Below, piece by piece: positions 960-59,800 of a DNA stretch of 64,000 nucleotides. Both the position numbers and the translations under genes were made by a program. How positions within the stretch are numbered: the first letter of the stretch is position 1; each line of letters opens with the position of its first letter. The notes under the pieces were generated by a model. It had not been told where the DNA came from. It saw only the letters and a program-made list of their open reading frames with translations, and ran no database searches. The stretch spans positions 15,140 through 79,139 of the forward strand of contig JBAQUG010000499.1 of NCBI GenBank assembly GCA_049297395.1, in the 5' to 3' direction. The stretch comes from Victivallales bacterium (GTDB taxonomy: Bacteria; Verrucomicrobiota; Lentisphaeria; Victivallales; GWF2-50-93).

Positions 960-2060
960 TCAACTGTTAAGTTCTTTGTATAGATTAATTAGGAAGTCGC
1001 GGTTGTCGGCGGAAAGGTATCTCATCGTCCCGCCCATGCGGCTGAATGTCTTGCAGTAGCGCAGGTAATACGCAGGATTGTCCATCGGCGGCTCGCCGGC
1101 CTTGCTCCAGTCCCAGGTGCTCTTCGCAAGATCAACTATAAGCATGAAGTGCTTGTCGATATGCTTGCCCTTTTGAATGAAAAGATTCTGCGACATCGAT
1201 AGCGATTTCTCGAAGATCATCGGCGACATTACGGCCGAACCGACCGACATGTAGACTCCGCCGTCCAGGTTGCTGACCTGTTTTGCGAAGACCAGGAAAT
1301 CGCGGAGCGCTGTCCGGCCAATCGCGGCGCCATGATTCATAGGATGATTATAGATGATGTCGTGTCCGAACATCGGATGTCCGGTGAAGGACACTTTCAG
1401 CCTGTAGGCTGCGGCTTGAACGCTATATTTTTTGAATGGATGATAAATTTTCATTGTCCCGGAGGCCAATGAAAATTTATTAATAGTGAAGAGCAAGTCT
1501 GCTGCTGCAGCGGATTTTTCCGGATCTTTAATATTCCTGACGGCATTTTTAAGTTCCCTGCTGTCAGGAATATTAAGGCCTTCATTATGGATCATTTTGC
1601 CTACGGACTCGCCGTAGCCGAGGCCTTCATAGGCGCCGACGACAATTGCGAGATTTATAAAGAACCCTGTTTCCTGCCAGACCCCGAACTCGCCTTTCTT
1701 GACATTTGTACCGACATCCTCGCTCGTGTTGCCGTGGTAGGCGGATTCCCAGTCGTGGATTATTCCGGCGCCATTTGTCGCGAGATGGGTGATCCAGCCG
1801 TTCTCGATGAACTTTATAAGCACAGGTGAAAGACCGTTCTTGATCGAGTGCGCCCCGAAGGTCAGCATCACCGACTTCTTGTTTTTCCTGGCCTTCTTAA
1901 TCCTGTCGGCGGTCTCCTTCAGAAGTTCCGCGTCAGCTCCTTTGAATTTTCCGACCTTTGAATCGACAGTGAGGTGGTCCCGTTCGATGTTGACCTTGCT
2001 GTACCTGTCCTTCAATGATTTGATCTTGAGATTGTCCCTGTCTAATTTAGGATAAGGCAT
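960..2060 (-). CDS. Hypothetical protein with weak deoxyhypusine-synthase-like (DHS-like NAD/FAD-binding fold) resemblance
   Basis: 366-aa ORF with no competing frame. VMLTFGAHSIKNGLSPVLIKFIENGWITHLATNGAGIIHDWE parallels the DHS segment ...TSNLISSG...VDVLVTTAGGVEED, and GGVYMSVGSAVMSPMIFE parallels the second glycine-rich DHS block. The family call is from memory and is not verified. Confidence 0.55.
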   Translation of the reverse strand: MPYPKLDRDNLKIKSLKDRYSKVNIERDHLTVDSKVGKFKGADAELLKETADRIKKARKNKKSVMLTFGAHSIKNGLSPVLIKFIENGWITHLATNGAGIIHDWESAYHGNTSEDVGTNVKKGEFGVWQETGFFINLAIVVGAYEGLGYGESVGKMIHNEGLNIPDSRELKNAVRNIKDPEKSAAAADLLFTINKFSLASGTMKIYHPFKKYSVQAAAYRLKVSFTGHPMFGHDIIYNHPMNHGAAIGRTALRDFLVFAKQVSNLDGGVYMSVGSAVMSPMIFEKSLSMSQNLFIQKGKHIDKHFMLIVDLAKSTWDWSKAGEPPMDNPAYYLRYCKTFSRMGGTMRYLSADNRDFLINLYKELNS

Positions 2061-2267: not shown

Positions 2268-4280
2268 TTAAATTTTTAAAAGTTCATACAAAAGCTCAGC
2301 CTGCGAATAATCCGGGATGATCATGTCCGCGCCGGCTCTTATCAGGCGGCGGCGCTTCTGTTCGTTCAACCCGAACCTGCGCACCTCGTCGCTAGCGATC
2401 CCGATCGCCAGTCCGCCACGCTTGTTGATCTCGCGGATCTCGACCGGTCCGTCGCCGAACGCCACAATCTGCTTCGCGTTCTTAGGACCAATGTCCCTGA
2501 CTATCCTGTCCATCACTATCTTCTTAGCTTCCTTCGTCACGTCGCCGACCGCGCCGTAGATCCTGTTCTCGAACAGATTGGCATATCCGAGGGCCTTGGC
2601 TTCCTCTATTACGTCGTCCTCGTCCGAACCGCTTGCCATATAGAGTTTGATTCCCGACTTGTGGAATTTTTCCAGGAAAGGGACAACCCCCTTGATTGCG
2701 AAGTCATCTATGTTGAGTTCGCCGCGTTTGAGCTTCTCGACCCGTTTTGTCACAAGTTCAAGAAGTCCTTCATTGTAGATCTTCTTGTAGCCGAATTCGT
2801 CTAGGACATCCTTTTCAGGAACGAAACCGAATTCCTTCACGAGTTTCACTAGACCCTGCATCTGGACGAGGGTCTGGACGCCGGTAGTGCTGTCGATGAA
2901 TTTCCTGACGCGGTTCAAAACCTTGTGATAGGTGGATTCGTCGGCCTTGGCGTAGACCGGACCCAGGATGGCCTTCATCATCATCGGTTCCATTATCTTC
3001 TCCCAGCCTTCGCGGAGTACGGAGATCGTGCCGTCGTGATCAAAGATGGCATGGGATATTTTTTCAATGCATATCGGTTCGCGCACAATCTCAATTTCCG
3101 AGTTCTTGTAATACTTCGCCGAACGGATATCATCGGCCTTTTCCGGAGTGAAGATGTAATCCGTGTCAGTCCCGATCTTCTTTATCTCCGCAGGAGACGC
3201 AGTGCCTGTCTGGTAGAGTTTCTGGACAGTGACGCCGGCGACGAAATTGCCGAATGTGGCGGCGGTCACAGGATCTGCTCCGCTGGCCATGGCGGCCGTG
3301 ATTCCGGAGAGCATGCTGTCGCCTGCGCCGACCGGATCGGTCTTTTCAATTATATGGAGGCCGGGAACCACGGTTGTTTGTAATGCGTCAGTCTTACCGG
3401 GGTCGGTTCCAGGACTTCTTTCCGAGGCACGAGGGAAAAGTACGGAACTGACCCCGCGTTTTTGTAAAGACTGACGCATTACGGTTGTCTTTTTGTCTTC
3501 AATTACCAGGCATCCTCTGTCGCCCCTGGTGACGAATACTGTCTTCTTCCATTTCATGGACAGCTTCATTCCTGCGGATTTCGCATCTTCCTCGGCTATC
3601 ACATCGTCAGGTTCGCAGCTGCGTCCGCAGAGCTTGGAGGCTTCATAGGAGTTGAGCTTCCTGATTGTGCCCTGGTAGAGATCGCTGCAGCTGCGGCTGT
3701 CGAGCATGAAAAGTTTCTTCTTGTTGTCGGATATCAGGTTCTGGAGCCCCTTCTGGAAAGTCCTGGAAAGATGTATGCCGTCGGAAACCTGCTGGTTGAT
3801 TATGACTGCGTCAAGACTCTTGATTTCCCTGGACAGGCAGGAAAGGAGTTTTGCTGCGACATCATCGGAAAGCTTATTGTAATTGCCGAAATCGATCCGG
3901 TTTCCTTCGACGCCGTTGTCAACCGGCTTGATGTAGACATGCGTGTTCCATTTTTCATCCTGTTCGAGAAGACTTTCATGACTGATGCCAAGAGTCTTCA
4001 TCAATGATCTCATCTGGTGGCCGAAAGGATCATGTCCGGTCACTCCGAAGACCGAGACCTTTTTCACGCCCATCGCCCTGAGGTTGTTCGCGACATTGCC
4101 GGCGCCGCCGAGGCTGTAGAGCTGGGTTTTGACGGGTTTCGTCGGAAGCTTAGTCTCCACCGAAATTTCCGACTTGTCCTTGTCGATGTTCCAGTACACG
4201 TCGAGACAGAAGTCGCCGATTATTCCGATGCGTGCGCCGACGATGGCTTTAAGGATTTTGTCCAAATCGATATTATGCAT
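2268..4280 (-). CDS. Fusion protein: PfkB-family (HldE/RfaE domain-I-like) sugar kinase + HAD-superfamily hydrolase
   Basis: 670 aa. N-terminal half: IIGDFCLDVYW, GGAGNVANNLRAMG, DPVGAGDSMLSG (PfkB signature). C-terminal half: HAIFDHDGTIS (HAD motif I), ...ASGSDEDD..., AFGDGPVEI. Carries a 37-aa in-frame insertion (see the mobile_element feature at 3380-3482). Confidence 0.8.
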   Translation of the reverse strand: MHNIDLDKILKAIVGARIGIIGDFCLDVYWNIDKDKSEISVETKLPTKPVKTQLYSLGGAGNVANNLRAMGVKKVSVFGVTGHDPFGHQMRSLMKTLGISHESLLEQDEKWNTHVYIKPVDNGVEGNRIDFGNYNKLSDDVAAKLLSCLSREIKSLDAVIINQQVSDGIHLSRTFQKGLQNLISDNKKKLFMLDSRSCSDLYQGTIRKLNSYEASKLCGRSCEPDDVIAEEDAKSAGMKLSMKWKKTVFVTRGDRGCLVIEDKKTTVMRQSLQKRGVSSVLFPRASERSPGTDPGKTDALQTTVVPGLHIIEKTDPVGAGDSMLSGITAAMASGADPVTAATFGNFVAGVTVQKLYQTGTASPAEIKKIGTDTDYIFTPEKADDIRSAKYYKNSEIEIVREPICIEKISHAIFDHDGTISVLREGWEKIMEPMMMKAILGPVYAKADESTYHKVLNRVRKFIDSTTGVQTLVQMQGLVKLVKEFGFVPEKDVLDEFGYKKIYNEGLLELVTKRVEKLKRGELNIDDFAIKGVVPFLEKFHKSGIKLYMASGSDEDDVIEEAKALGYANLFENRIYGAVGDVTKEAKKIVMDRIVRDIGPKNAKQIVAFGDGPVEIREINKRGGLAIGIASDEVRRFGLNEQKRRRLIRAGADMIIPDYSQAELLYELLKI
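3380..3482. mobile_element. Palindromic MITE/RPE-like mini-element inserted in frame in the kinase coding sequence
   Basis: Perfect 16-bp terminal inverted repeat GTAATGCGTCAGTCTT (3380-3395) / AAGACTGACGCATTAC (3467-3482). Inner imperfect pair at 3397-3410 / 3444-3456. Flanking 8-bp direct repeat ACGGTTGT at 3370-3377 and 3481-3488. The distance between the direct repeats is 111 nt, which is 37 codons. Confidence 0.7.
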
Positions 4281-4365: not shown

Positions 4366-5088
4366 TTATTTCAACTTGACAAGTTCCGCGCGGAATTTCA
4401 TGGAAAGACCTGCAATATCTTCCTTCTTAAGATAATCGCCCAAGGAATCATATATGCCCTTGTCAGTAATGTCCTGGATCTTCATCCTGAGGAAATCAAA
4501 GAAAGCCTCGACTCCTGAGCCTCTGAAATAATCCTCTTTACGGACAAGCTTCGAATAAGATGGTTTTTTGAGACGTTCTTTCAAGGTCTTGATGTCCGGA
4601 TAGATTCCCATTGTGAGATAAAACCAGATATCGTAGACATCCCTTATGAGCCGTCGTTCATTCCAGGCGGCCAACTTGTTTGCAAGGGCGACGGAATATT
4701 CAACCACAGGGATCAGCCGGGGCTGCAGGTCGAATTTCAGCGCAAGCTCCTTGTTGGAAATTATTTGTATAGGCACCTCCATTGCAACCTTGGCTTCGAT
4801 CTGGATTGAGGCATCACCCACCTTCAGGACAACGCGCAGACATTTAGAGTTGAGCGAGTATTCAATTTTAGCACCATCTATTTCCTTGAGAGCCGAGATG
4901 ACGTCTTCAACGATATCCTTCTTCGACTTGAAGGGAATGAAGACATAGTCCAGATCGTTTGTCAAACGCTCACAGCCGAGAATTCTCAAACTCATTCCTC
5001 CGCGCAGGACTGCCTTCCTGTCAAACTTCCTCGCAAACAGATCCATTACTTTTAAAAGCAGGGCTTCTTCCTTTATCATATTTTCCAT
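4366..5088 (-). CDS. abiEii: AbiEii/AbiGii-family nucleotidyltransferase toxin (type IV TA / abortive infection)
   Basis: 240 aa. LRGGMSLRILGCERLTNDLDYVF matches the GG..L...R.S.DLDF pattern of DUF1814/AbiEii. Overlaps the upstream abiEi gene by 13 nt. Confidence 0.75.
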   Translation of the reverse strand: MENMIKEEALLLKVMDLFARKFDRKAVLRGGMSLRILGCERLTNDLDYVFIPFKSKKDIVEDVISALKEIDGAKIEYSLNSKCLRVVLKVGDASIQIEAKVAMEVPIQIISNKELALKFDLQPRLIPVVEYSVALANKLAAWNERRLIRDVYDIWFYLTMGIYPDIKTLKERLKKPSYSKLVRKEDYFRGSGVEAFFDFLRMKIQDITDKGIYDSLGDYLKKEDIAGLSMKFRAELVKLK

Positions 5089-5666
5089 ATCCTCCTGAAA
5101 AAAGAGACAAAACGGCGGTCATATTTACTGAGATAGCCTGAAATGACCTTTGCCTTTAGTCCGTCCATATTTACATCGCTTTCCGGATCGAACGAAAATC
5201 TTCTGCCCTTGTAATAGAAGTAGCAGACATCAAGAAAAGCCTTTTCGGCTGAAGCGAACTTTATTCCATTGACGGTCTCGAATCCAAAATACAGGTCCGG
5301 GCTTATGCTAAGGTGCTCAACTATGCCTAGTTCACATTCGTAAACTCTCGGCCTTCCTATTTTGACAGCCTGGATTCTGCGGGCAGGAACAGACCCTATG
5401 ATGACTTTGGATGCCAGCACCGTACCAGTCGAAATATATGAATCAGGGTTGATACGCGCACTTATGGTCTCGAGCGCAGTGCCAGGCAAGGCGTATATCC
5501 CGCGCTTGACCTTGATCAGCACCTTGTCCTTTACGGCAGACTCGAGTTTCTTGAAAAGCGCAGCCTCGCTCTGTCCTCCAAAAACGACCTTCAAGTCCGG
5601 CATGGTTATTACGCCATCCAGTTCCGAACCCCATTTCTCAATATTTCTGACATCAATTGATTTCAT
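5076..5666 (-). CDS. abiEi: AbiEi-family antitoxin / transcriptional regulator
   Basis: 196 aa with an N-terminal winged-helix-like region (ITMPDLKVVFGGQSEAALFKKLESAVKDKVLIKVKRGIYALPG). Its position and overlap with abiEii fit the AbiE two-gene architecture. Confidence 0.7.
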   Translation of the reverse strand: MKSIDVRNIEKWGSELDGVITMPDLKVVFGGQSEAALFKKLESAVKDKVLIKVKRGIYALPGTALETISARINPDSYISTGTVLASKVIIGSVPARRIQAVKIGRPRVYECELGIVEHLSISPDLYFGFETVNGIKFASAEKAFLDVCYFYYKGRRFSFDPESDVNMDGLKAKVISGYLSKYDRRFVSFFRRIWKI

Positions 5667-24374: not shown

Positions 24375-24615
24375 CGTATAGGAAATTGTATTTTAGACAG
24401 GATAACAGGATAAACGGGATTTTAAAATGGATTTAAATATTGAGTTGCAATCAAAGAGCACGTCAGCAGAGTGACGTGGCTACAACAAATCCAGGCTGTA
24501 GCCGCGTCACTCTGCTGACGCGTTCCTTTCCCGATGAATGCAACTTGCTATAAATATCCTTGGAATCCTGTAAATCCTGTCCGAAAAGTTATTAAGCCCC
24601 GGCGAAGCCGGTTAA
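24375..24615 (+). repeat. 241-bp palindromic intergenic element, copy A (MITE/ERIC-like); core 64-nt hairpin at 24460-24523
   Basis: Near-identical to 36534-36781, differing by a few substitutions and an 8-nt indel. Core: ACGTCAGCAGAGTGACGTGGCTACA / ACAAATCCAGGC / TGTAGCCGCGTCACTCTGCTGACGCGT. The outer arms GACAGGATAACAGGATAAACGGGAT and ATCCTTGGAATCCTGTAAATCCTGTC are inverted copies of each other. Confidence 0.85.
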
Positions 24616-24721: not shown

Positions 24722-25444
24722 ATGAAAACGAAACAGACAATAGTGGTGGCGGGAATCCTGGCAGCTGGATTTCTGGTGGAGTCGCTTGTGGCCGGAGAGA
24801 TCAACGTGAAGAAAGCGGACGGAAAGACTGTTGTGCAGGTTGTCGCAGGTTCACCTGAAGCTCCTGCCGTGCAGGCTGCAAATCCGAACATCCAGGTGGA
24901 ATGCCTGAAATCAAAAGACAGCCAGACCCCTTATCCGGTGCTGAAGGATGATCTTGTAAATGCAGGATCTCCGTCCCTGGCTAAAGTATTGTTCGATGAC
25001 TTTGCCCCGCATCAGGCGTGTAATGCCGCGGCATTGAATGACGGAAACACAGGAAATCCTTCGGATCAGAACGGTGTCACGTTCGATCTGGATGGCACAT
25101 GGACCACCACGTTCGTGCTGGACGCTTCCAAGGCGTCCAAGGGCTATGATATCAGCGAGATAAGAACCGTTGCAGGCTGGCCGCCGAGCCGCGCATACCA
25201 GAAATACGAGCTGTTGGTTTCCAAGGTTTCCGCGCCTGATAAATTCATCTCCATGGGGACGTTCAATGTGGATGCGGAAGGAGGAGCCTTGGCAAGTCAG
25301 ATTAAATTAACAGGAAAAGAGAGCCTGATCGAGACCAATGTGTCTTCAATAAAATTCAAGTTCATGGTTCCCAATCCAGCCGTTCCAGCAACCGAGACGG
25401 CCTACCGTGAAATTGATGTCGTTGGCAAGGCAAGCGAAAAATGA
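24722..25444 (+). CDS. Secreted hypothetical protein (possible discoidin/galactose-binding-like fold)
   Basis: 240 aa. AGGAG lies upstream of the ATG. Signal peptide MKTKQTIVVAGILAAGFLVESLVAGE. The function call is weak. Confidence 0.6.
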   Translation: MKTKQTIVVAGILAAGFLVESLVAGEINVKKADGKTVVQVVAGSPEAPAVQAANPNIQVECLKSKDSQTPYPVLKDDLVNAGSPSLAKVLFDDFAPHQACNAAALNDGNTGNPSDQNGVTFDLDGTWTTTFVLDASKASKGYDISEIRTVAGWPPSRAYQKYELLVSKVSAPDKFISMGTFNVDAEGGALASQIKLTGKESLIETNVSSIKFKFMVPNPAVPATETAYREIDVVGKASEK

Positions 25445-30962: not shown

Positions 30963-33900
30963 ATGAAAATATTTTTATGGAATCAACTTTCAGCACTTGG
31001 AAAAACCGCCAAGCTACTACATCCCGTCTCCTCGCACCTCTTTTCCTTGATCGTTTTCTTTTCAACCTTGCTGGGCTTGGGCATCCCCCAGAGCTTTGCC
31101 CAGGGCGAACGCGGCGCCGCTTATGATAAATTGGGTTTTTATCCTGGCACCTTCAATATCGAAAATCCGGAGGGCTACAACAACCTGCTTGACATAGAAC
31201 AATGGCTGGGACGCAAGATTCCGTTCATAGTACAGATGTCCGATTGCCGTAATGCCGATTCCATGATGTATTCGGTCCTCGGTACAACCCCAGCCTGGAA
31301 GGCAACAGGTGAGCCCGTCACTTTGGTAATGAATGTTCCCTTGGCCTTCAAGGGCGGCAACGGATCCACCCCCGCTGGACAGGCTCTCGTGCGGCAGGGG
31401 CTCATCGATACCGCCAATGGGATGCACGACGCCCAATATTTACGATTCGCCCAAAGCCTTAAAAACGACGGGTTTGCCAATGCCATTCTTCGACTGGGGC
31501 ACGAATTTGATGGATACTGGACAGGTTGGTCCTGCATAGGGAATTACGACGTGTTCATCTCCGCCTGGCGGCACGTCCATGATATTTTTAAAGGGGTCAG
31601 TCCAGGTTTCCTTTTTGATTATAATGGCACTGTATTTTCATTCCATGCACCCGCCAATGCCTATGCTGGCGACACCCGGACACGCGCTGAAGCGGCTTAT
31701 CCCGGCGATGCCTATGTTGATGTGGTGGGATTGGATCTTTACGACCGAAATATTGGTCCCCCCTGGTATGATTATTTCAAGCAAGGCTGGAACGACCCCG
31801 AGAAGACTTGGAAAGATAAATTTATGCCGACTCTCGTTCATCATCGTGATTTTGCGGTTTCCAAAGGCAAGACTGTAAGCTTTCCCGAATGGGCGGTGCA
31901 GGCCCACGCAGGTATTTATATCTATACCGGCGGCGATGATTCCGCTCTTATCCGTAACTTTTACAACTGGATGAGCAGCCTGCCTCCCAGTGGTCCAGGA
32001 TCGCTCAAGTATCATAGTTACTTCTGGCTTGGTCCCCAGCCCAACGCAAGCAATCCAAATCTCAGCTATGGAACACTAATGCTCACAAGCCCTCAGCTGG
32101 CGGAATCCGCTTTGATGTTCAGTCAGCTTTATGGTGCCAAGTGGGTCACTGGCCAGATCGGAGATTCAAGCGGTACCGGAAGCGCTCCGGTGCTGGACGA
32201 CCTTATGAGTGGAAGTTTCACGCTCAGCAGTTCTGGCGGCGGGGTGACGGGAGCAGCGGATGATTTCCAGTATGCCTGCCAATCATTGACCGGTGACGGG
32301 CAGATTATCGCGCAGGTCACCAGCATCCGCAACAGCGATTTTTCGTCTTCCAACCCCCTGGCCATGGCGGGAGTGATGATCCGGGAGGACGATTCAGCCG
32401 GCTCCAGGAGCGCGCTTCTGGGAGTCGCTCCCGGCAAGGTGGCGTTTGTGACCCGGCTTGCTCCAGATTCTTCCAGCTCTATCGCGACGAGTGCGCGTTC
32501 AGCCCTGCCTTACTGGCTCAAACTCGTCCGCAATGCAGATGAATTTAAGGCTTACACGTCGGCTGACGGGGAGGATTGGACCATGGTGGGTTCCGCGAGC
32601 ATTCCCATGCAGGGAATTGTAAAAATAGGACTGGCTGTCAGCTCCAACCATATAGGAGTTCTAAATACCTCCACCTTCCGCAACGTCCAGGTAACCCGGT
32701 GGGATGCGACGGACGTCTTTCCCTACGATGCCGACTCTCCAGATTATTTTTCAGGCATTGTCAAGCATTATCCGGACTATGGCTATACGCGCGGGAGCAT
32801 CGGCGTCCCCAGCAGCGAGGCTGTCGACCAGGCCGGCGGCACTATGACAATATCTGCCAGCGGCAGCGGGATCGGCGGCGTGGCGGACTCCTTCGATTTT
32901 GTGCATGAAACACTTGTCGGCAATGGACAGATTGTGGCCAGGCTCCTCGGCGTTTCGCAAATCAACGCATCGTCGAAAGCAGGGCTCATGATCCGTGAAA
33001 AGCCCAGCGAAGGTTTCTCCGCGGGTTCCAAGAGCGTGCTGATGTCCTATGCGCCAGGCAATGGCTTTGTCCTTACAAGCCGTTCGACTGAAAATGGCGG
33101 ATCTTCCACCTGGGCCGGCGGCTGGGCGTACTTGCCTTATTGGCTCAAACTCGTGCGCTGCGGGGATCGTTTCACCGGTTACAAATCACCCGACGGAGTT
33201 ACCTGGACAATGGTGGGATACGCCGATGTTTCCATGGGCGCCGCCGTTGAGATCGGACTTGCAGTCACCTCGCACGACAAAACGCTTTCGGCTACATCGA
33301 ACTTCGACAACATCCGCGTCGATCGCTGGAGCAGTTGCGACATTGGAGCAATCGGAGTCCCCGGCAGCGAGACGTTTGATCCTGCCACGGGAACTTATGG
33401 GGTGACAGGGAGCGGCGCCGGAATTGGCGGAACCTCCGATGCATTCCGTTTCGTCTACCAGGCCCTCGACGGGGACGGGGAAATTGTGGCCAGGATCCGC
33501 GGCATTTCGCGAATCAACGACTCGTCGAAGGCCGGGCTCATGATCCGTGAAACGCTTTCCGCCGGTTCCAGGAGCGCGCTGATATCCTATGCGCCAGGCA
33601 GTGGATTTCTCCTTACAAGCCGTTCGACTGAAAATGGCGGATCTTCCACCTGGGCCGGCGGCTGGGCGCCGGATCCGGTCTGGCTCAAACTCCAACGCCA
33701 CGGAAACCTTTTTGTGGGATATAAATCCGCTGACGGCATCGCCTGGACCTATGTCGGCCAATATTCCATTCCCATGACGCAAACCGTCTATGTCGGGATG
33801 GCAGCGAGTTCATGCAGCAAATGGCTGCTCGGCTCGGCAACATTCGACAGCATGAAAGTCGACACGCTGTCCAATGACAACGTGGGCGCTGCGTCGGGCG

Positions 33901-34439
33901 GCGGCAAGACGTTCGATCCCGCAACGGGCGCCTACACGGTGAAGGGTGGCGGCAGCGCAGGAATTGGAGGTACAACCGATGCTTTCTATTTTGTTCATCG
34001 CACTTTGGCTGGCGATGGTGAAATTGTGGCCAGGGTCGGCGATGTTTCGCAAATCAACGCATCGTCGAAGGCAGGGCTCATGATCCGTGAAACGCTTTCC
34101 GCGGGTTCCAGGAGCGCCCTGATATCCTATGCGCCGGGCTATGGCTTCGCCTTCACAAGCAGGCTTAACGTGTCCGGCAGCTCATCAACCTGGGGCGGTG
34201 GCTGGATGCCGGGGCCCTATTGGCTCAAACTCATCCGCTGGGGAAATCGTTTCACCGGTTACAAGTCGCCCGATGGAATTACCTGGACAATGGTGGGATA
34301 TGCCGATATTCCGATGGCATCCACCACTGAAATCGGTCTGGCGGTAAGTTCGAGCGATGCGGCTAAAATCGCCACAGCAACTTTTGAAAATGTGAGTATC
34401 ACCTTGACTCCCTACCATAAGACCAACATCTTCTGGTAA
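30963..34439 (+). CDS. Secreted GH26-like (clan GH-A) glycanase followed by four tandem ConA-like/DUF1349-like domains
   Basis: 1158 aa with a signal peptide. ILRLGHEFDGYWTGW resembles the GH26 acid/base block (..HE.NG.W), and VSFPEWAV is a candidate nucleophile. Four ~160-180-aa repeats follow, each with GIGG..D.F.FV...L.GDG.I.A......N..SKAGLMIRE. Family not verified. Confidence 0.65.
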   Translation: MKIFLWNQLSALGKTAKLLHPVSSHLFSLIVFFSTLLGLGIPQSFAQGERGAAYDKLGFYPGTFNIENPEGYNNLLDIEQWLGRKIPFIVQMSDCRNADSMMYSVLGTTPAWKATGEPVTLVMNVPLAFKGGNGSTPAGQALVRQGLIDTANGMHDAQYLRFAQSLKNDGFANAILRLGHEFDGYWTGWSCIGNYDVFISAWRHVHDIFKGVSPGFLFDYNGTVFSFHAPANAYAGDTRTRAEAAYPGDAYVDVVGLDLYDRNIGPPWYDYFKQGWNDPEKTWKDKFMPTLVHHRDFAVSKGKTVSFPEWAVQAHAGIYIYTGGDDSALIRNFYNWMSSLPPSGPGSLKYHSYFWLGPQPNASNPNLSYGTLMLTSPQLAESALMFSQLYGAKWVTGQIGDSSGTGSAPVLDDLMSGSFTLSSSGGGVTGAADDFQYACQSLTGDGQIIAQVTSIRNSDFSSSNPLAMAGVMIREDDSAGSRSALLGVAPGKVAFVTRLAPDSSSSIATSARSALPYWLKLVRNADEFKAYTSADGEDWTMVGSASIPMQGIVKIGLAVSSNHIGVLNTSTFRNVQVTRWDATDVFPYDADSPDYFSGIVKHYPDYGYTRGSIGVPSSEAVDQAGGTMTISASGSGIGGVADSFDFVHETLVGNGQIVARLLGVSQINASSKAGLMIREKPSEGFSAGSKSVLMSYAPGNGFVLTSRSTENGGSSTWAGGWAYLPYWLKLVRCGDRFTGYKSPDGVTWTMVGYADVSMGAAVEIGLAVTSHDKTLSATSNFDNIRVDRWSSCDIGAIGVPGSETFDPATGTYGVTGSGAGIGGTSDAFRFVYQALDGDGEIVARIRGISRINDSSKAGLMIRETLSAGSRSALISYAPGSGFLLTSRSTENGGSSTWAGGWAPDPVWLKLQRHGNLFVGYKSADGIAWTYVGQYSIPMTQTVYVGMAASSCSKWLLGSATFDSMKVDTLSNDNVGAASGGGKTFDPATGAYTVKGGGSAGIGGTTDAFYFVHRTLAGDGEIVARVGDVSQINASSKAGLMIRETLSAGSRSALISYAPGYGFAFTSRLNVSGSSSTWGGGWMPGPYWLKLIRWGNRFTGYKSPDGITWTMVGYADIPMASTTEIGLAVSSSDAAKIATATFENVSITLTPYHKTNIFW
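32200..34410 (+). repeat. Four intragenic tandem domain repeats (unit about 540 nt)
   Basis: Approximate units: 32200-32700, 32806-33330, 33358-33863 and 33890-34410. The 58-nt block 33071-33128 is identical to 33611-33668. Confidence 0.85.
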
Positions 34440-36533: not shown

Positions 36534-36781
36534 CGTATAGGAAATTGTATTTTAGACAGGATAACGGGATAAACGGGATTTAAAATGGATCTAAATAATA
36601 AGTTGCAATCAAAGAATCAAAGAGCACGTCAGCAGAGTGACGTGGCTACAACAAATCCAAGCTGTAGCCGCGTCACTCTGCTGACGCGTTCCTTTCCCGA
36701 TGAATGCACCTTGCTATAAATATCCTTGGAATCCTGTAAATCCTGTCAGAAAAGTTATTAAGCCCCGGAGTAGCCGGTTAA
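36534..36781 (+). repeat. 248-bp palindromic intergenic element, copy B; core hairpin at 36625-36688
   Basis: Collinear with 24375-24615. Ends 23 nt before the ATG of the 980-aa glycosidase gene. Confidence 0.85.
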
Positions 36782-36804: not shown

Positions 36805-39747
36805 ATGATTGGAAAGACAATGAGAATTGCGGTCATGGCGATGTCATGCTTGGCCGCCGCTTTCACATGCATGGCGGCGGAGAAGCAGATGGTGCTGACC
36901 GGCGACACGAACCGGCCCGAGCTAAGCACATTCATTCCGGGTGAGAAGATCACTCTGGAATTCACGGTCAGAGGCGCAGCTTCTTCCGACACGGGGCTGA
37001 AACTGCTTCTCGACATAGTGGACGAACATGGCCGGAGCGTGGAGAAGAAGGAAATCCCAGTTCAACCAGACGGCACTGGAGCATGGAAAACCACCGTGGA
37101 GACACCAGCCTCCAAGCTCGGATTCTACCGGGTGAAAGCCAAGCTTTCCAATGGCGTGGAACTTCCCAAGATTGGAACCCGACAGGCCGGCTATCTGACC
37201 TATTGTGTGGTTCCTGATCCGAGCCAGCGGAAGTTCTACCCGCAGGCGGAAACGCATTTTGGAATTGCAGGAGGCACTGCGGCAATGCAGCCTTATCTAG
37301 GTGTTCGATGGGTTCAGCATGCGGGTTATTGGCGTTTCATCGAACCGAAAGAAGGGGTTGGATGCCGTGAATATTTTGAAAAACAAAAGAGTATTCAGCC
37401 CAAGGCGAAGGGAGATTCCTGGAAAACCTACGGTGAAATATGTGTCTTTTCCTGGCCTGAATGGGCTACCAAGGGTAAACAGGGAGATCTTACCCCCGAC
37501 GGGGAAACGGCCTGGCGGAATTACTGTCTGGAACTTGGGAAAAGGTTTGCAGACAGCGAGGCGAACGGTGAAATGAGCGGACATGTCTACCAGGTACTAT
37601 GGGAACCCGTCTATCCGTGGGGGCATAAAGGAACTGACGAAGGACTCGTTCGCGGTGCGGAGATCGCATACAAGGCATTGCACGAAGCTGATCCGAAGGC
37701 CGTGGTGATCGGCCCGACCGGCGCCGGCATCCGGAATTCCGACCTTGAATGGAACCGCAATCTCCTCAAAAAGGGAATGGGCAAGTATCTCGACGGCTTT
37801 TCCATTCATCCCTACATCTCGGTGCCGGAACGTGACGGGCTGGTGGAAAACATCAGGACATTGAAGGGGATTATCCGTCAGGCGCTCGGCAAGGATCTTC
37901 CGCTCTATGGAAGCGAGCAGGGATCCCAGACCAAAGAGGATCCCTCCAAGGAACTGGAACAGGCGCAGTTCCTGGTCCGCTCCAGTCTGATCATGCTGGG
38001 AGAAGGGTTTCAATATAATTTCATCTTTTTCGGCCAGGATTATCCTTCTGAGCCTGGCTACGGTCTTTATTACAACTTCGATCCTGCCAAATATGTATGG
38101 GGCGGCGGCCCAGGCAGCCCCAAGCCAGTAGTCCCCTCCTATGCGGCGATGACCTTCCTCCTGGATGGACATCAGACTGGAGGTGCGATCGAATGGCTGG
38201 GCAAGACGGCGCTGGGATATGTTTTCGAGAGGCCCGGCAGCATTGTGCTCGCCCTTTGGGATTACGGTGACAATCCCAGGGAAGTTTCATTGCCTGTAGG
38301 AACCAGGCAGGTCGATATTTACGACTGGATGGGGAACATGAGGACAGTTCCCACCCCGGACGGCGAACTGAAGATCACCCTGACACCGGAGCCAGTCTAT
38401 GTCAAAGGAGCCTCTCCAAGGTTCTGGAGCAGGACGGCCGAAAAACCGTTGAAGCTGAAGGATGAGCGGGTACGGGCATATCCCGGCGGACAGGTTGTCG
38501 TTTCGGGTGAAGTCACGGCCTCCGGCGACAAGCCGATCAAGGGAGTGGTCGCGCTGGAAACCGACAGGAAATTGCATGCGCGACGCATGGAGGTTCCGGT
38601 TTCGGCCGAAGAAAGTATGTTTTTCTGGAACAAGAAGAGCCAGTCTTTTGATTTCGTATTGGACATCCCCATGGATCTGCCATTGGGAATGTATCCCGTC
38701 AAGATCACGCTGGAGGACGGGAGCGGTCCCTTGTCCGGCATCGCCCTGCCGCTTGAGGTGCTCTCGCCGATATCAATTGCCTCGGTCGAGCCGGTCTTTC
38801 TCCCTGGCGGCAGGAAGGGACTGAAGATCAACGTGAAGGAAATGCAGGGAAGAAGCGCCCAGGCAGGCATTCAAGCCCGCCTCAACGGCGTTCCGGAAAG
38901 CAGGAAGAGCGTGGAGACCAGGATTCAGGCCAACGAGGAGAAAAGCGTGATAATCGCTTATGACGGCCTTGAGGTCTTGCCGGCGCGTATGTACAAGGTG
39001 CCGGTTCAGCTTACGCTTGACAACGGCTTCAAGGTGGAAAAGGAATTCTCCGTCAACCTGATGAGCATTCCGCATCTGTCCAAGCCACCGGTGATTGATG
39101 GAAGTCTCGCGGACTGGACGGCCATCCCCCCCATCGAAATGCATGGCAGGGAATGGGTGGTGCGTTCGCCGGAATACTACAAGGACGGTTTTTCCGCGAC
39201 GGCGCGGTTTGCCTGGGATGAACAGGCTTTCTATCTGGCATTCGAAGTGACGGACGATGTCTTCCTCCAGCCCTATGCCGGATTTGACACCTGGAACGGC
39301 GACTGCATCCAGCTGGATCTGGACCTGGATCCGCGGAAGCTCGTGCTTGCAAGCGGCAATCTCCTTCTCGACAACGACAGCAGTTCCAAGCGGCGCCACA
39401 CGGAGATCGATCTGGCTCTGACGAAGAACGGCTCCGAGGCATATCGGACTCTGACATTTGACCCAGGCAAGTTGCCCATCGCATTGCTCCCGGCCGATAA
39501 AATCAAGCTGGCCGTGGTCAAGACAGGAGATGGGAAATTGATTTACGAGGCGGCCATCCCCTGGGAAACCCTCGGTCTGACAGGCAGGCCCAAGGCGGGC
39601 GACGCTATCGGGATTGCCGCCGCCATCAACGACCGGGATGAAGTCAATCCCAAACAGGCCGACGTGACGGCCATCGGTCTCTTTGACGGAATGGCGGGAG
39701 CGAACAAGAATCCAGAGAAGTTCGGATATGTCGTACTGGGGGAATAA
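36805..39747 (+). CDS. Secreted clan-GH-A-like glycosidase with C-terminal CBM9-like domain (paralogue A)
   Basis: 980 aa with a signal peptide and AAGGAG upstream of the ATG. YQVLWEPVYPW (acid/base-like block), FSIHPY, LYGSEQG (nucleophile-like block). C-terminal PPVIDGSLADWTAIPPIEM...ARFAWDEQAFYLAFEVTDDVF is CBM9/DOMON-like. Paralogous to the genes at 53784-56684 and 56804-60475. Confidence 0.7.
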   Translation: MIGKTMRIAVMAMSCLAAAFTCMAAEKQMVLTGDTNRPELSTFIPGEKITLEFTVRGAASSDTGLKLLLDIVDEHGRSVEKKEIPVQPDGTGAWKTTVETPASKLGFYRVKAKLSNGVELPKIGTRQAGYLTYCVVPDPSQRKFYPQAETHFGIAGGTAAMQPYLGVRWVQHAGYWRFIEPKEGVGCREYFEKQKSIQPKAKGDSWKTYGEICVFSWPEWATKGKQGDLTPDGETAWRNYCLELGKRFADSEANGEMSGHVYQVLWEPVYPWGHKGTDEGLVRGAEIAYKALHEADPKAVVIGPTGAGIRNSDLEWNRNLLKKGMGKYLDGFSIHPYISVPERDGLVENIRTLKGIIRQALGKDLPLYGSEQGSQTKEDPSKELEQAQFLVRSSLIMLGEGFQYNFIFFGQDYPSEPGYGLYYNFDPAKYVWGGGPGSPKPVVPSYAAMTFLLDGHQTGGAIEWLGKTALGYVFERPGSIVLALWDYGDNPREVSLPVGTRQVDIYDWMGNMRTVPTPDGELKITLTPEPVYVKGASPRFWSRTAEKPLKLKDERVRAYPGGQVVVSGEVTASGDKPIKGVVALETDRKLHARRMEVPVSAEESMFFWNKKSQSFDFVLDIPMDLPLGMYPVKITLEDGSGPLSGIALPLEVLSPISIASVEPVFLPGGRKGLKINVKEMQGRSAQAGIQARLNGVPESRKSVETRIQANEEKSVIIAYDGLEVLPARMYKVPVQLTLDNGFKVEKEFSVNLMSIPHLSKPPVIDGSLADWTAIPPIEMHGREWVVRSPEYYKDGFSATARFAWDEQAFYLAFEVTDDVFLQPYAGFDTWNGDCIQLDLDLDPRKLVLASGNLLLDNDSSSKRRHTEIDLALTKNGSEAYRTLTFDPGKLPIALLPADKIKLAVVKTGDGKLIYEAAIPWETLGLTGRPKAGDAIGIAAAINDRDEVNPKQADVTAIGLFDGMAGANKNPEKFGYVVLGE

Positions 39748-56803: not shown

Positions 56804-59800
56804 TTATGGCCTCAGAAGAGCGGTGATAGCTGAGTCAGTCATCCCTATGATGTATCGAGGACATTGGCCTGCTGTAATTGTCAGATCCCCGCCGCTCGTG
56901 GCTTGTGTGGTTGGATTTCCCATGAAATCACAGAGGGTGACTGATGCCGCCCCCGTCGCTATGGTGACGCTCCGGTCGACATTATCCTTGCACCAGATGG
57001 CGACGACGTTTTCATCGGCCCGTTTGAAGGCATATCCGTAAATGGCGCTCGACATCGGGAAGATCAGCCGTCCGGTGGTTGTCGTTCCATCGATAAGGCG
57101 AGTGAGCGCGCAGCCAGCCATGAAGGCAGGCTTCGGAGATACGTTAGTCACTCCGTAGCCTGAGCCCATGGTAAGATTGAACAACAAGCCAGCTCCGGCG
57201 TTGATACCGGTGCCTGCCGGATTTCCCCCATCTGTATTATAGAAGAACCAACTGGTACGGCATCCTTCGCCCAGGAAAATCAGATGTCCTCGGACGGTAT
57301 ACGCCGCATGTTTCAATATCATGTCGGAAGTCACGCTCATATAGGGAGCGCGATAATCCATGCCCCACTCCGTTTGGTGCATCTCGGCTCCCGTCTTCAA
57401 ATACGTCGCCATCAAACTCTTGATGGCGGCGAGGCTGGCCTCCAGATTCCCATACTCAGGAACATATTGGTTTGGATCGTCATCAGGATTGCCATTTTTA
57501 CGGTAATAGCCATGAAAGCTTACGCCGTCTGGAATGCCGTCGAGACCCAGCCCCGTATTCTGCAATGCGGGCAGCAACTCTGTGAGTTCAAGAACCGCGT
57601 TTTCAGGCATGGCATAGGTCGGCATGAGAACCTTTGCGTTGGGATCCGCCTCGTGAATCCCCAATGAGACCCGCCCGTACTGCATGGCGGCTTCTTCAAC
57701 CGTTCCCTTCCAGTGCCATTCTGGCTCCCAGTCAAGCTTATAGTAGACAGGGAGATCCACACCGAACCGGGCGTTCTGCCTGTAGGCCATTTCTGCGGAA
57801 AGGACTTCCGCGTAGTTTTGATATTGGACGGGGTCGCGAAGAGCGAATGCTTGATCCTCGAAACCTGGGTAACCGTAAGTTTTTGGATCAAACCCCACGG
57901 GGACATCGTAAGACCATGTCGGCCTTTTATAGAGATCGAACATAGGATACAACCCATTGCGGACGATGTAATCCGTGGCTCCTCGATTGGCGGCCATAGT
58001 GGCGGCAGTCGCCTCTCCTGGGATATTCGGCTCACGATTCGCCCACTGATATGAGGAATTATAGGCCCAATGCGTGCCAAGTGTGGTATAAACCGGGTTT
58101 ACCCAGTCGGCGGGCGCGGAGGGGAGCAGGAAATTGCTGCCGGTAAGGCCAAATCGGGAATCGCTCGGATGCGCCAGTGTGAGCGCTGAGAACGTTGGCA
58201 GTATGCCGAACGATGCCATGCCGAGAGGCCGAGTTCCAAGAGCCGGCAATATCGCCACGCCGTTGGCAATTTCGGCTTGCACCTCCATATATCCAGAGGG
58301 AAGCCCGCTCATCTCGACGGGATGTGTCGTGGAGAGCTCCAAACCTTGGGCCGTTATTGTGCCTGACCGCAAAACGTTCCTGGCGTAATCTACGACCATC
58401 CAGTTAATCACGCTAGGCGCCGCGGTGGTGCGCGTCACGTTGAACAACATGTTTACCTTACTGTTAGCCGCAAATACTGGGAACGTTGGAGAACTGGGAA
58501 AATCGACGCTCAGTGATTCCGTGGGAAGCGTGTTTACGGCGACATCATCGAGGTAATAGGCGCCAATAGCGCCACTGCCGGGGCCGAAATAGATCGAGTC
58601 GAAGTTGACTAGACAATTGCCGCTGACAAAGCCAACGCCGCCCAGTGAGCCCGACGTTCCATTAGATGCCGTCCAGTTGATGTCATACGTCTCTAAATCA
58701 AGAGAGATGTTTTTGAAAGTCATCGTGTAAGTGACACCGGCCATAGGTCTTTTTGCCGTGGAAAACCCCGGCAGATATGACCAATTACCTTGGGCATCCC
58801 GGTATGACATGCTGTTTAGCGAAAAATCAATCGCCTTGTATAAGTCATGGCCTGGATTCGCGCTGCTGCTGCATAGCTTGAATCTGTAACTATTTGCCGC
58901 CCCCAGCGAAGTGAAGTTGAATTTGAAGGAGACTTCGAGATTCTTCGTTGTGGGCGAAAATGTTTGATAGAGGGTTTGAGTCCCTGCGGCTGTTGTGTCG
59001 TTTATGTAGAGTTGGTTTGATCCATTGCGGCTTTGGACGGTCGCCGATCCACCCGTTGTCTTCACCACCCAGGGAGATACAGGCGCATTGCCGATCATGT
59101 AAGCCGACCAATCCTCAGAGACGAGAGATGCCTCCTTGACCACGACATCATCAAGGTAATACGCGGCAATAGCGCCACTGCCTGTGCCGAAATAGACCGA
59201 GGCGAAGTCGAGTAGATAATTGCCGCTGGCAAAGCCAACGCCGCTCAGTGAGCCCGACGTCCCATCGTCTGCCATCCAGTTGATGTCATAGGTCTCTGAA
59301 TCAAGCGAGATGTTCCTGAACACCATCGTGTAAGTGGCACCGACCGTAGGTCTTTTTGCCATGGAAAACCCCGGCAGATATGACCACTCACCTTCGGCAT
59401 CCACGTATGACATGCTGTTTAGCGAAAAATCAATTGCGCTATATAAGTAATTGCCTGGATTCGCACCGCTGCTGCATACCTTGAATCTGTAGCCAGTCGA
59501 CGCACCCAACGAAGCGAAGTTGAACTTGAAGGAGACTTCGAGATTTTTCGTTGTGGGAGCAAATGCTTGATAGAAGGATTGAGTCCCATCGCATGTTGGA
59601 TCGTCTATGTAGAGTCGGTTTGATCCATTGCAGCTTTGGACGGCCACCGATCCCTCCGATGTGTTCACTACCCAGGGCGCCTCAAGCGTGTCTCCGATCG
59701 CGTAAGCCGACCAATCTTCAGAGACGATTGGTGCCTTGACCACGACATCATCGAGGTAGTAGGAGCCAATAGCGCCCTTGCCGGAGCCGAAATAGACCGA

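Follow-up and report, generated by a model that had tools for sequence, protein, structure and literature searches.

Introduction

Coxiella QMITE2, the Neisseria Correia elements and the enterobacterial ERIC sequences are all small, non-autonomous elements that are bounded by terminal inverted repeats (TIRs) and accompanied by target-site duplications (TSDs), and in these respects they resemble the element described below. Correia elements duplicate TA, and REPs are not known to make a target duplication of a fixed 8 bp. In termini, TSD length and host range these elements are unlike our family; QMITE2, for instance, has 150-190 bp and direct repeats of 7-11 nt. Bacterial MITEs are mostly intergenic and only occasionally fused in frame to open reading frames (PMC5896051, PMC10969869); such fusions have nevertheless already been termed "not unusual" (PMC10969869). 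A known case of palindromic sequences within genes is that of the Rickettsia palindromic elements (RPEs). Like the element studied here, they measure roughly 100-150 bp and can lie in frame in enzyme genes, where they add a surface peptide compatible with the fold of the host protein (PMC10969869).

Among the larger insertion sequences, members of the IS66 family are flanked by 8-bp direct target repeats (PMC3281130, PMC11946415), which are regarded as characteristic of the family, and have inverted repeats of about 15-30 bp that start with GTAAGCG (PMC11946415). Examples of such ends are GTAAGCGTCCGG in ISPsko1 (PMC12888890) and GTAACTGCTCAGCA in ISDge4, which also shows an 8-bp direct repeat (PMC12898284). 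The IS66 elements described so far come mostly from Proteobacteria, Firmicutes and Bacteroidetes, whereas the hosts of the elements reported here are PVC-group bacteria and environmental metagenome-assembled genomes (MAGs). We analysed a palindromic element that interrupts, in frame, the kinase domain of a PfkB-HAD fusion gene on a 64-kb stretch of Victivallales DNA (hereafter the window).

Structure of the element and its family

The element is 103 bp long, reads GTAATGCGTCAG...CTGACGCATTAC at its two ends on the + strand and is nearly wholly self-complementary (Table 1). A preliminary description of the region, made from its sequence, had placed a perfect 16-bp inverted repeat exactly where we find it. 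The inner repeat pair that it proposed also exists, except that its left arm begins 1 nt later than position 3397. The strength of the hairpin at positions 3370-3488 is far beyond chance: the predicted folding energy of this 119-nt stretch is -53.8 kcal/mol in the mRNA sense (z -8.1) and -59.7 kcal/mol for the + strand (z -7.1), and in both cases none of 200 shuffled sequences was as stable. A hairpin of -54 kcal/mol within the mRNA could lower expression. As for other roles of the element in gene expression, promoter and terminator searches gave only weak consensus matches, none of them convincing on the gene strand, and an Rfam scan of the whole 64-kb window at gathering thresholds gave no match.

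Table 1. Positions of the element, its repeats and the host gene in the window
Feature	Position	Strand	Remarks
Host gene, 670-aa fusion of PfkB (HldA-like sugar kinase) and HAD phosphatase	2268..4280	-	Pfam PF00294, PF00702
37 extra codons, aa 268-304, MRQSLQKRGVSSVLFPRASERSPGTDPGKTDALQTTV	3369..3479	-	Without stop; absent from all aligned homologues
TSD copy 1, GGTTGTTT	3372..3379	+	AAACAACC on the gene strand, downstream of the element; family register
MITE	3380..3482	none	Boundaries from 38 independent copies, all with GTAA start and TTAC end
Left TIR, GTAATGCGTCAGTCTT	3380..3395	+	16 nt; first 13 nt (GTAATGCGTCAGT) conserved in the family
Inner stem and loop	3398..3456	none	Arms 3398-3410 and 3444-3456, 13 nt, 92% complementary
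Right TIR, AAGACTGACGCATTAC	3467..3482	+	100% complementary to the left arm
TSD copy 2, GGTTGTCT	3483..3490	+	AGACAACC on the gene strand, upstream of the element; family register

We then searched for further copies. Within the 64-kb window there is no second one, neither by matching the 16-mer with up to three mismatches, nor by blastn-short with the whole element, nor by blastn with all 38 copies of the family. A search of genome contigs with the exact 25-mer of the left end also gave no match, and a gapped two-arm pattern, GTAATGCGTCAG-N60-90-CTGACGCATTAC, was used next on genome and metagenome collections. This pattern retrieved 12 genome and 29 metagenome loci, compared to an estimated 0.1 or so expected by chance. 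These 41 loci represent 37 further distinct insertions, so that the family comprises 38 copies of 84-114 bp including that of the window. Their hosts are Lentisphaerae, Verrucomicrobiota and other MAGs and metagenomes, with four copies in the Lentisphaerales MAG CAYLNH01 and three in the Verrucomicrobiota MAG JBEKIA01; the MAG JBAYFV01 likewise carries more than one. All copies share the 13-nt termini, the first 12 nt being fixed by the search pattern and position 13 being a T in 68 of the 76 arms, while the interiors fall into unrelated subfamilies. The closest sibling of the window copy is 89% identical across all 103 nt and lies in a non-coding context of another Victivallales MAG (L010). 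Moreover, a truncated member of a sister subfamily occurs at positions 6724-6802 of L002, a locus from an organism closely related to that of the window.

The 38 copies also define the target duplication. In 17 copies the 8 bp immediately next to the termini are the same on both sides; they match at seven of eight positions in nine further copies and at six of eight in five. Thus, at least six of eight positions agree in 31 of the 38 copies, compared to about 1% of control flank pairs; the remaining seven show no clear duplication. Because the duplications of the family abut the GTAA and TTAC ends directly, the true TSD of the window copy is the pair GGTTGTTT/GGTTGTCT, which adjoins the inverted repeat and matches at seven of eight positions. 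In the preliminary description the 8-mer ACGGTTGT had been taken for the duplication. It is indeed present at 3370-3377 and 3481-3488, 111 nt apart, but as a TSD it is out of register by 2 nt, its first two bases (AC) matching the final two nucleotides of the element by chance. The copies found beyond the window share the termini of the window copy, and most of them are flanked by their own 8-bp duplications.

The window copy is the only one of the 38 that clearly lies in frame within a gene; the others appear to be mostly intergenic. Some are spanned by long stop-free frames, which we considered as candidates for further in-frame insertions. Five of these frames contain no Pfam domain, and in two more the only domain (serpin and Creatinase_N, respectively) lies downstream of the element, which is hence located 5' of the real start. 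These frames are artefacts of GC-rich sequence or 5' regions.

The insertion in the PfkB-HAD gene

Together with one copy of the duplication, the element adds 103 + 8 = 111 nt to the gene, that is 37 codons, and the minus-strand frame runs through them without a stop, as had been noted before. Only one of the six combinations of element orientation and reading frame is free of stop codons, and it is this combination that is present. The encoded peptide is rich in S, P, G, R and T, again as described, and its junctions with the rest of the protein read ...EDKKTTVMR and TDALQTTVVPGLH... If aa 268-304 are deleted, the sequence ...EDKKTTVVPGLHIIEKTDPVGAGDS is restored, and the homologues are continuous at this point. 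For the alignment that had been suggested as a check, we took the best 120 homologues, which are 630-662 aa long except for two of 407 and 609 aa, and aligned 58 of them. All 58, at 54-91% identity, lack exactly the 37 residues 268-304.

The empty site can also be seen at the DNA level. The closest orthologue (L001; 86% nucleotide identity) contains a single ACAACCGTG and reads ...AAGAATACAACCGTGGTC... with the uninterrupted codons GAC AAG AAT ACA ACC GTG GTC. The site is uninterrupted in all four loci from related genomes (L001 to L004), each of which has one copy of the target sequence. A search of 5.8 billion proteins with the insert peptide yielded no candidate, so that no further in-frame member of this subfamily has been recorded.

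We subsequently asked where the additional residues would be located in the enzyme. In the AlphaFold model of the complete protein (mean pLDDT 88.8), the kinase domain superimposes on the HldA structures 4e84 and 4e8z with TM scores of 0.84-0.85, the insert being present. The sole segment with a pLDDT below 50 comprises residues 270-296. The insert emerges at the tip of a β-hairpin, between the strands 257-262 and 300-305. It is therefore predicted to form a disordered surface loop, a point that the preliminary description had listed for checking.

These data bear on the possibility that the insertion inactivated or crippled the kinase, the open frame being accidental, the loop not tolerated and the gene decaying or redundant. 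The location gives some weight to this reading, since the strand pair that houses the insert comes after the nucleotide-binding loop TRGDRG, and the insert precedes the catalytic motif DPVGAGD by 10 residues; the mRNA would in addition carry a strong hairpin, and a recent insertion might not yet show signs of decay. On the other hand, the full 670-aa frame is intact, and every column that is invariant among the 58 homologues is retained in the host protein. The dN/dS ratios against three orthologues are 0.058-0.064, compared to 0.084 between orthologues, pairwise values that mostly reflect the time before the insertion. Furthermore, the TSD has since acquired one substitution, which is synonymous, while lesions are absent from the gene. 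The model is confident for the remainder of the protein, the insert being looped out at the hairpin tip, and the 64-kb window contains no paralogue that could compensate for a loss. We therefore regard inactivation as unlikely. Instead, translation of the element most likely yields a disordered surface loop, rich in S, P, G, R and T, which is tolerated by the enzyme.

The putative mobilizing transposase

The element carries none of the genes tnpA, tnpB and tnpC, and its mobilization would depend on a transposase encoded elsewhere. An IS66-type enzyme is the most likely candidate, because both the ends of the element (GTAA...TTAC) and the length of its duplication (8 bp) agree with those of the IS66 family. 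With ISCro1, ISPsko1 and ISDge4 the element has in common the GTAA start, a GCGTC-type core and a directly abutting 8-bp TSD. To our knowledge, IS66 is the only described family in which a start with 5'-GTAA, the core GCGTC and a TSD of exactly 8 bp abutting the repeat occur together. The annotated copy of ISCro1 that we inspected has the ends GTAACCGG... and GTAAGCGACTCGTCAG..., adjoined by a perfect 8-bp TSD (GTAGAAAT). The correspondence is not complete: the termini of our element read GTAATGCG, not the canonical GTAAGCG, and have one T more than GTAAGCGTC (PMC11946415, PMC12888890). A very similar sequence, GTAACTGCTCAG, is found in ISDge4, a member of the ISBst12 group of IS66 (PMC12898284).

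We searched for the transposase itself by tblastn. For TnpC, real sequences from ISCro1 and an Aminobacter IS66 element were used as probes; the TnpB probe was validated by its 65-80% identity to the annotated tnpB in at least 5000 plasmids. Neither TnpB nor TnpC homologues were detected in the window or in 45 loci (approximately 380 kb). The same DNA contains no GTAA...TTAC unit of the size of an insertion sequence, and lone arms occur only as remnants (for example at position 6413 of L012 and in the truncated copy in L002). Between the arms of L012 there is no transposase gene, the encoded proteins being of the TPR, YmdB, SDR and DAG-kinase types. In viral contigs the two-arm pattern had no match, and a search with the extended arm hit a single chance occurrence that lacked a partner arm. 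Overall, no autonomous partner with matching termini was found in the window, the 45 loci or the viral contigs.

This leaves some room for a mobilizer outside IS66, since 8-bp duplications are also made by other families (such as IS6, ISL3, IS256 or IS1595), and an undescribed family could be responsible as well. The missing TnpB/TnpC homologues and full-length partner in the DNA searched point in this direction, as does the departure of the terminus from GTAAGCG. Against it stand the combined termini and TSD, which we also observed on ISCro1, and the similar end of ISDge4. Taken together, a transposase other than IS66 appears rather improbable, and we consider an IS66-type enzyme, on the basis of terminal sequence and TSD length, the most likely mobilizer.

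Discussion

The explanation that we favour, and consider highly probable, is that a non-autonomous, IS66-like MITE has inserted in frame into the PfkB-HAD gene and added a loop that is tolerated by the enzyme. The insertion of a MITE had been proposed in the preliminary description, and the gap in the homologues, the empty site, the family copies and the loop prediction all back it.

Three further readings were weighed. Palindromes can arise during amplification or assembly, and the exact host protein is absent from the collection of 5.8 billion proteins, as might be expected if a fold-back chimera or a mis-joined repeat had been introduced into the gene. Such an assembly or sequencing artefact would neither create a TSD nor preserve the reading frame, and it is made very unlikely by the precise family boundaries, by an 8-bp TSD that agrees with the family in length and register, and by 37 independent insertions of homologous elements in unrelated assemblies. 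It is extremely unlikely that the element is a repeat of the REP/BIME type (mobilized by RAYT) or of the RPE type rather than a DDE-type MITE. Like the RPEs, it is a palindrome of about 100 bp that lies in frame within an open reading frame (PMC10969869), and the analogy drawn before holds to this extent. It fails for the behaviour of the family, which is mostly intergenic: RPEs insert in frame very frequently, in nearly half of the cases or more, and encode conserved peptides (PMC10969869), whereas one of our 38 copies is clearly in frame. In addition, the family differs from RPEs by its clear TIRs, its fixed 8-bp TSDs in most copies and the unrelated interiors of its subfamilies, and the host phylum is unrelated. 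Finally, an ancestral or lineage-specific, non-mobile protein segment (derived by duplication, slippage or loss elsewhere), as might be suggested by the duplicated TTV tripeptide and the in-frame, stop-free sequence, is incompatible with the family copies and the empty site: the segment is missing from all homologues examined, including one with 91% identity, its peptide is common to no other protein in the 5.8-billion-protein search, and copies of the DNA element are also found in non-coding sequence, for example in L010. The TSD, the non-coding family copies and the empty site likewise rule out an intein, an intron or an ancestral loop.

For the MITE insertion we envisage the following course of events. 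The element, which codes for no transposase, would have been mobilized in trans, by a cut-and-paste or copy-and-paste reaction, through a DDE transposase that recognizes GTAATGCGTCAGT, the conserved 13 nt at each end, and cuts the two target strands at positions staggered by 8 bp. Insertion into the sequence ...AAAAAG/ACAACC/GTGGTT... of the PfkB-HAD gene would have duplicated 8 bp. The gene would have survived through the coincidence of three circumstances, namely an added length that is a multiple of three, the single stop-free combination of orientation and frame, and a site at the tip of a β-hairpin; together these account for the gene having stayed open. Of these points, the data show directly that the element was inserted, that an empty site exists, that the copy belongs to a family with a regular TSD, that the frame is open and that a loop is predicted; that the loop is translated and retained, that the enzyme still functions and that the partner is of the IS66 type is inferred.

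A broader proposal is that all elements with GTAATGCGTCAGT ends belong to an undescribed IS66-type MITE superfamily distributed across Lentisphaerae, Verrucomicrobiota and other environmental phyla, whose subfamilies share only the 13-nt ends for transposase recognition and have unrelated hairpin interiors, and that the window copy has been exapted as an expressed surface loop of PfkB-HAD, as a PVC counterpart of the RPE phenomenon. We put this forward tentatively and regard it as possible rather than likely. A literature search of limited coverage returned no description of the MITE family, consistent with the earlier remark that in-frame palindromic elements were not known from PVC-type genomes.

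The insertion in the window is a clean but fairly ordinary example of a known phenomenon and involves no new mechanism. Its value lies in the evidence that comes with it (the empty site as a control, the TSD and the structural rationale), in a phylum whose mobile elements have barely been catalogued. It offers a textbook-quality natural case in which a MITE has added a peptide to a conserved enzyme apparently without breaking it, the function being probably retained. The signature of the family points toward IS66-type transposases as the mobilizers. In PVC bacteria and in MAGs from peat and sediment, such elements can cause spurious-looking insertions, broken contigs and unusual gene models, and the combination of GTAATGCGTCAGT ends with an 8-bp TSD provides a simple flag for the annotation of these genomes.

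An in-frame insertion in the PfkB-HAD gene

The 670-aa PfkB-HAD protein had been proposed to contain a 37-codon insertion derived from a miniature inverted-repeat element (MITE). Among 5.8 billion proteins searched, 3703 homologues were identified; the top-ranking 120 measure 630-662 aa, except for two shorter ones (407 and 609 aa). In alignments of 21 and later 58 homologues (54-91% identity), exactly residues 268-304 are missing from every sequence, as the preliminary description had suggested. We then compared the corresponding DNA of four loci (L001-L004), obtained for the three most similar orthologues. L001, the nearest locus (86% nucleotide identity), reads GAC AAG AAT ACA ACC GTG GTC, compared to GAC AAA AAG ACA ACC (111 nt) GTG GTT in the window. 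L001 is a clean empty site. Judged from the homologues and this site, the 37-codon segment is an insertion.

The perfect 16-bp inverted repeat was recovered at the coordinates originally reported, together with an inner 13-bp pair of 92% complementarity. The 119-nt stretch folds into a single long hairpin (-53.8 kcal/mol, z = -8.1 for the mRNA-sense strand; -59.7 kcal/mol, z = -7.1 for the + strand), and none of 200 shuffles folded as well. We found no second copy of the element within the 64-kb window, no Rfam match for it and no exact match to a 25-mer of its left end in the genome collection.

Coordinates of the features described (window positions unless a locus is named)
Feature	Position	Strand	Context
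366-aa gene	960-2060	-	downstream of PfkB-HAD
PfkB-HAD gene	2268-4280	-	670 aa, PfkB and HAD domains
8-mer ACGGTTGT	3370-3377, 3481-3488		spacing 111 nt
Target-site duplication by family rule	3372-3379, 3483-3490		GGTTGTTT / GGTTGTCT
16-bp inverted repeat	3380-3395, 3467-3482		perfect
Inner 13-bp pair	3398-3410, 3444-3456
AbiEii toxin gene and 196-aa ORF	4366-5666	-	directly upstream of PfkB-HAD
Second palindromic repeat	2102-2212	rc	intergenic, immediately 3' of PfkB-HAD
Second palindromic repeat	24419-24615		intergenic, just upstream of ORF 24722-25444 (+)
Second palindromic repeat	36615-36781		intergenic, just upstream of ORF 36805-39747 (+)
Tandem repeats, three units each	32855-34357, 58533-60035
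130-nt repeat, four copies	8587, 35858, 41848, 63885
Truncated family copy	L002 6724-6802		intergenic
52-nt mini version	L032 1126-1177		~580 nt from full-length copy, same contig
Copy with inverted flanks	L041 6705-6830

The element family and its target sites

Other copies, whose existence had been named as a check, were found with the two-arm pattern GTAATGCGTCAG-N60-90-CTGACGCATTAC. It requires only 12 nt per arm and matched 12 loci among species-representative genomes, plus 29 from metagenomes; the estimated chance expectation in the genome collection is ~0.1 matches. After de-duplication, 38 distinct insertions of 84-114 bp remained, the window copy included. They originate from peat, sediment and groundwater samples, with four copies in a Lentisphaerales MAG, three in a Verrucomicrobiota MAG, and further hosts among Victivallales, Lentisphaeria and one MAG labelled Acidobacteriota. 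Every copy has GTAATGCGTCAGT at each terminus, with a loose SWYGG after it, and folds strongly. Their interiors represent unrelated subfamilies: a peat group of 19 members, two groups of four members each, the window copy with L010 (89% identity), and nine singletons. These copies place the element in a mobile family.

In L002 (GCA_965085625), which comes from a close relative of the window organism, a truncated member of the L039 subfamily lies ~3 kb upstream of the PfkB-HAD orthologue. Over 79 nt its identity is 88.6%, with arm GCAATGCGTCAG present and the other arm missing. This sister-subfamily copy indicates that the family is resident in the lineage of the window organism. The mini version in L032 (GTAATGCGTCAGTGATGG…CGACTGACGCATTGC) looks like an internal-deletion derivative.

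Of the 38 copies, 17 have identical 8-bp flanks directly next to GTAA and TTAC, nine match at seven positions and five at six, while a match of six is reached by only ~1% of mismatched control flank pairs. The 8-bp target-site duplication (TSD) initially described for the window is indeed present, but the perfect 8-mer is off by two bases, because AC at 3370-3371 is by chance identical to the terminal AC of the element. The empty site is compatible with both registers, and the choice follows that of the family. In the register so assigned, the two copies differ at a single position, a synonymous change in the gene (CAG to CAA). A few copies lack the 8-bp TSD (L041, L012, L015/L026 and L044). 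The flanks of the L041 copy are inverted (CAAGTTAA / TTAACTTA), thereby extending the palindrome outward. This arrangement may stem from nested insertion, recombination between copies or a palindromic target.

A putative IS66-type mobilizer

The IS66 family has inverted repeats "starting with GTAAGCG" and characteristic 8-bp direct repeats (PMC11946415). ISPsko1 ends with GTAAGCGTCCGG... (PMC12888890) and ISDge4 with GTAACTGCTCAGCA next to an 8-bp repeat (PMC12898284); 8-bp repeats also flank ISPpa5a and ISPpa7 (PMC3281130). The ends of the 2,699-bp ISCro1 annotated on an E. coli plasmid (GTAACCGG... and GTAAGCGACTCGTCAG...) adjoin the perfect 8-bp TSD GTAGAAAT. The 5'-GTAA ends and 8-bp duplication of our family correspond to this published hallmark. 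From the terminal sequences and the TSD, we infer mobilization by an IS66-type transposase, a putative rather than demonstrated membership.

A TnpB probe, validated on at least 5000 plasmids with annotated tnpB (65-80% identity), gave no tblastn match in the window or ~380 kb of fetched loci, and neither did two real TnpC sequences. No IS-sized GTAA...TTAC unit was present in these sequences, only housekeeping genes lie alongside a lone arm in L012, and nothing was found in viral contigs.

Consequences for the host protein

The 103-bp element and the 8-bp duplication add up to 111 nt, or 37 codons, and the frame is open throughout, as noted previously. Only one of the six orientation-by-frame combinations is stop-free, and exactly this one is present; family-wide, 51 of 228 are open. 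The copies examined outside the window are apparently intergenic or within spurious GC-rich frames (L006, 5' of a serpin gene; L032, 5' of a Creatinase_N gene; L010, between small ORFs). No predicted protein in a large protein collection shares the insert peptide. Length, sole open frame, the contexts of the other copies and the unmatched peptide together indicate that in-frame insertion is a rare, filtered event. The family shows no preference for it, which sets it apart from the Rickettsia palindromic elements (PMC10969869). Length plus 8 is divisible by three in 21 of 38 copies (~13 expected), but these are not independent, since many belong to one 103-nt subfamily.

An AlphaFold2 model based on a 59-sequence alignment (mean pLDDT 88.8, pTM 0.84) falls below pLDDT 50 only at residues 270-296. 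This segment loops out from between strands 257-262 and 300-305 and precedes the DPVGAGD motif by ~ten residues, in line with the surface loop considered earlier. The modelled kinase domain can still be superposed on the Burkholderia heptose-7-phosphate kinase HldA (target-normalised TM 0.84-0.85). All columns invariant among homologues are kept, and dN/dS against three orthologues (0.058-0.064) is not higher than between orthologues (0.084). The window contains no paralogue of the gene. Model, conserved columns and dN/dS together fit a tolerated surface loop in a protein that may be expressed and active. The mRNA hairpin of -54 kcal/mol could carry a cost.

Neighboring repeats and genes

A second dispersed palindromic repeat (…ACGTCAGCAGAGTGACGTGGCTACA…TGTAGCCGCGTCACTCTGCTGACGCGT…) has a core of ~80 nt and a stem of ~29 bp. 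Its two copies upstream of ORFs have ~240 nt in common (96-97% identity), and 10 of 12 positions agree between its stem end GGAACGCGTCAG and the MITE terminus GTAATGCGTCAG. The AbiEii toxin gene (PF08843, E = 6.6e-13) and its 196-aa partner, which has no Pfam match, are kept in this arrangement in L002, L003 and L004, but not in L001. The conserved 366-aa gene follows PfkB-HAD in the window, L001, L003 and L004, and lies two genes downstream in L002. Its Pfam matches are only sub-threshold (deoxyhypusine synthase, 24 bits at a cutoff of 27; ArgZ-like Rossmann fold), and a functional partnership with the kinase-phosphatase is possible. The tandem repeats (~540-600 nt, 61-94% identity) are probably repeated protein domains; the separate 130-nt repeat may be a shared gene N-terminus.

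Relation to known elements

Functionally, the element works like Rickettsia palindromic elements and other in-frame MITE fusions, which a 2024 review calls "not unusual" (PMC10969869) and of which Coxiella QMITE2 provides further examples (PMC5896051). In mechanism, it resembles an IS66-type MITE. Neither IS66 nor a PVC phylum appears in the review, and a full-text literature search for "miniature inverted-repeat transposable" with Verrucomicrobia/Lentisphaerae gave nothing relevant. The earlier impression that such elements are undescribed in PVC-type genomes is consistent with the literature covered, and the family appears to be undescribed in the limited literature searched. A specialist would not be surprised by this finding; it is solid and well documented, and helps the annotation of PVC and peat MAGs.
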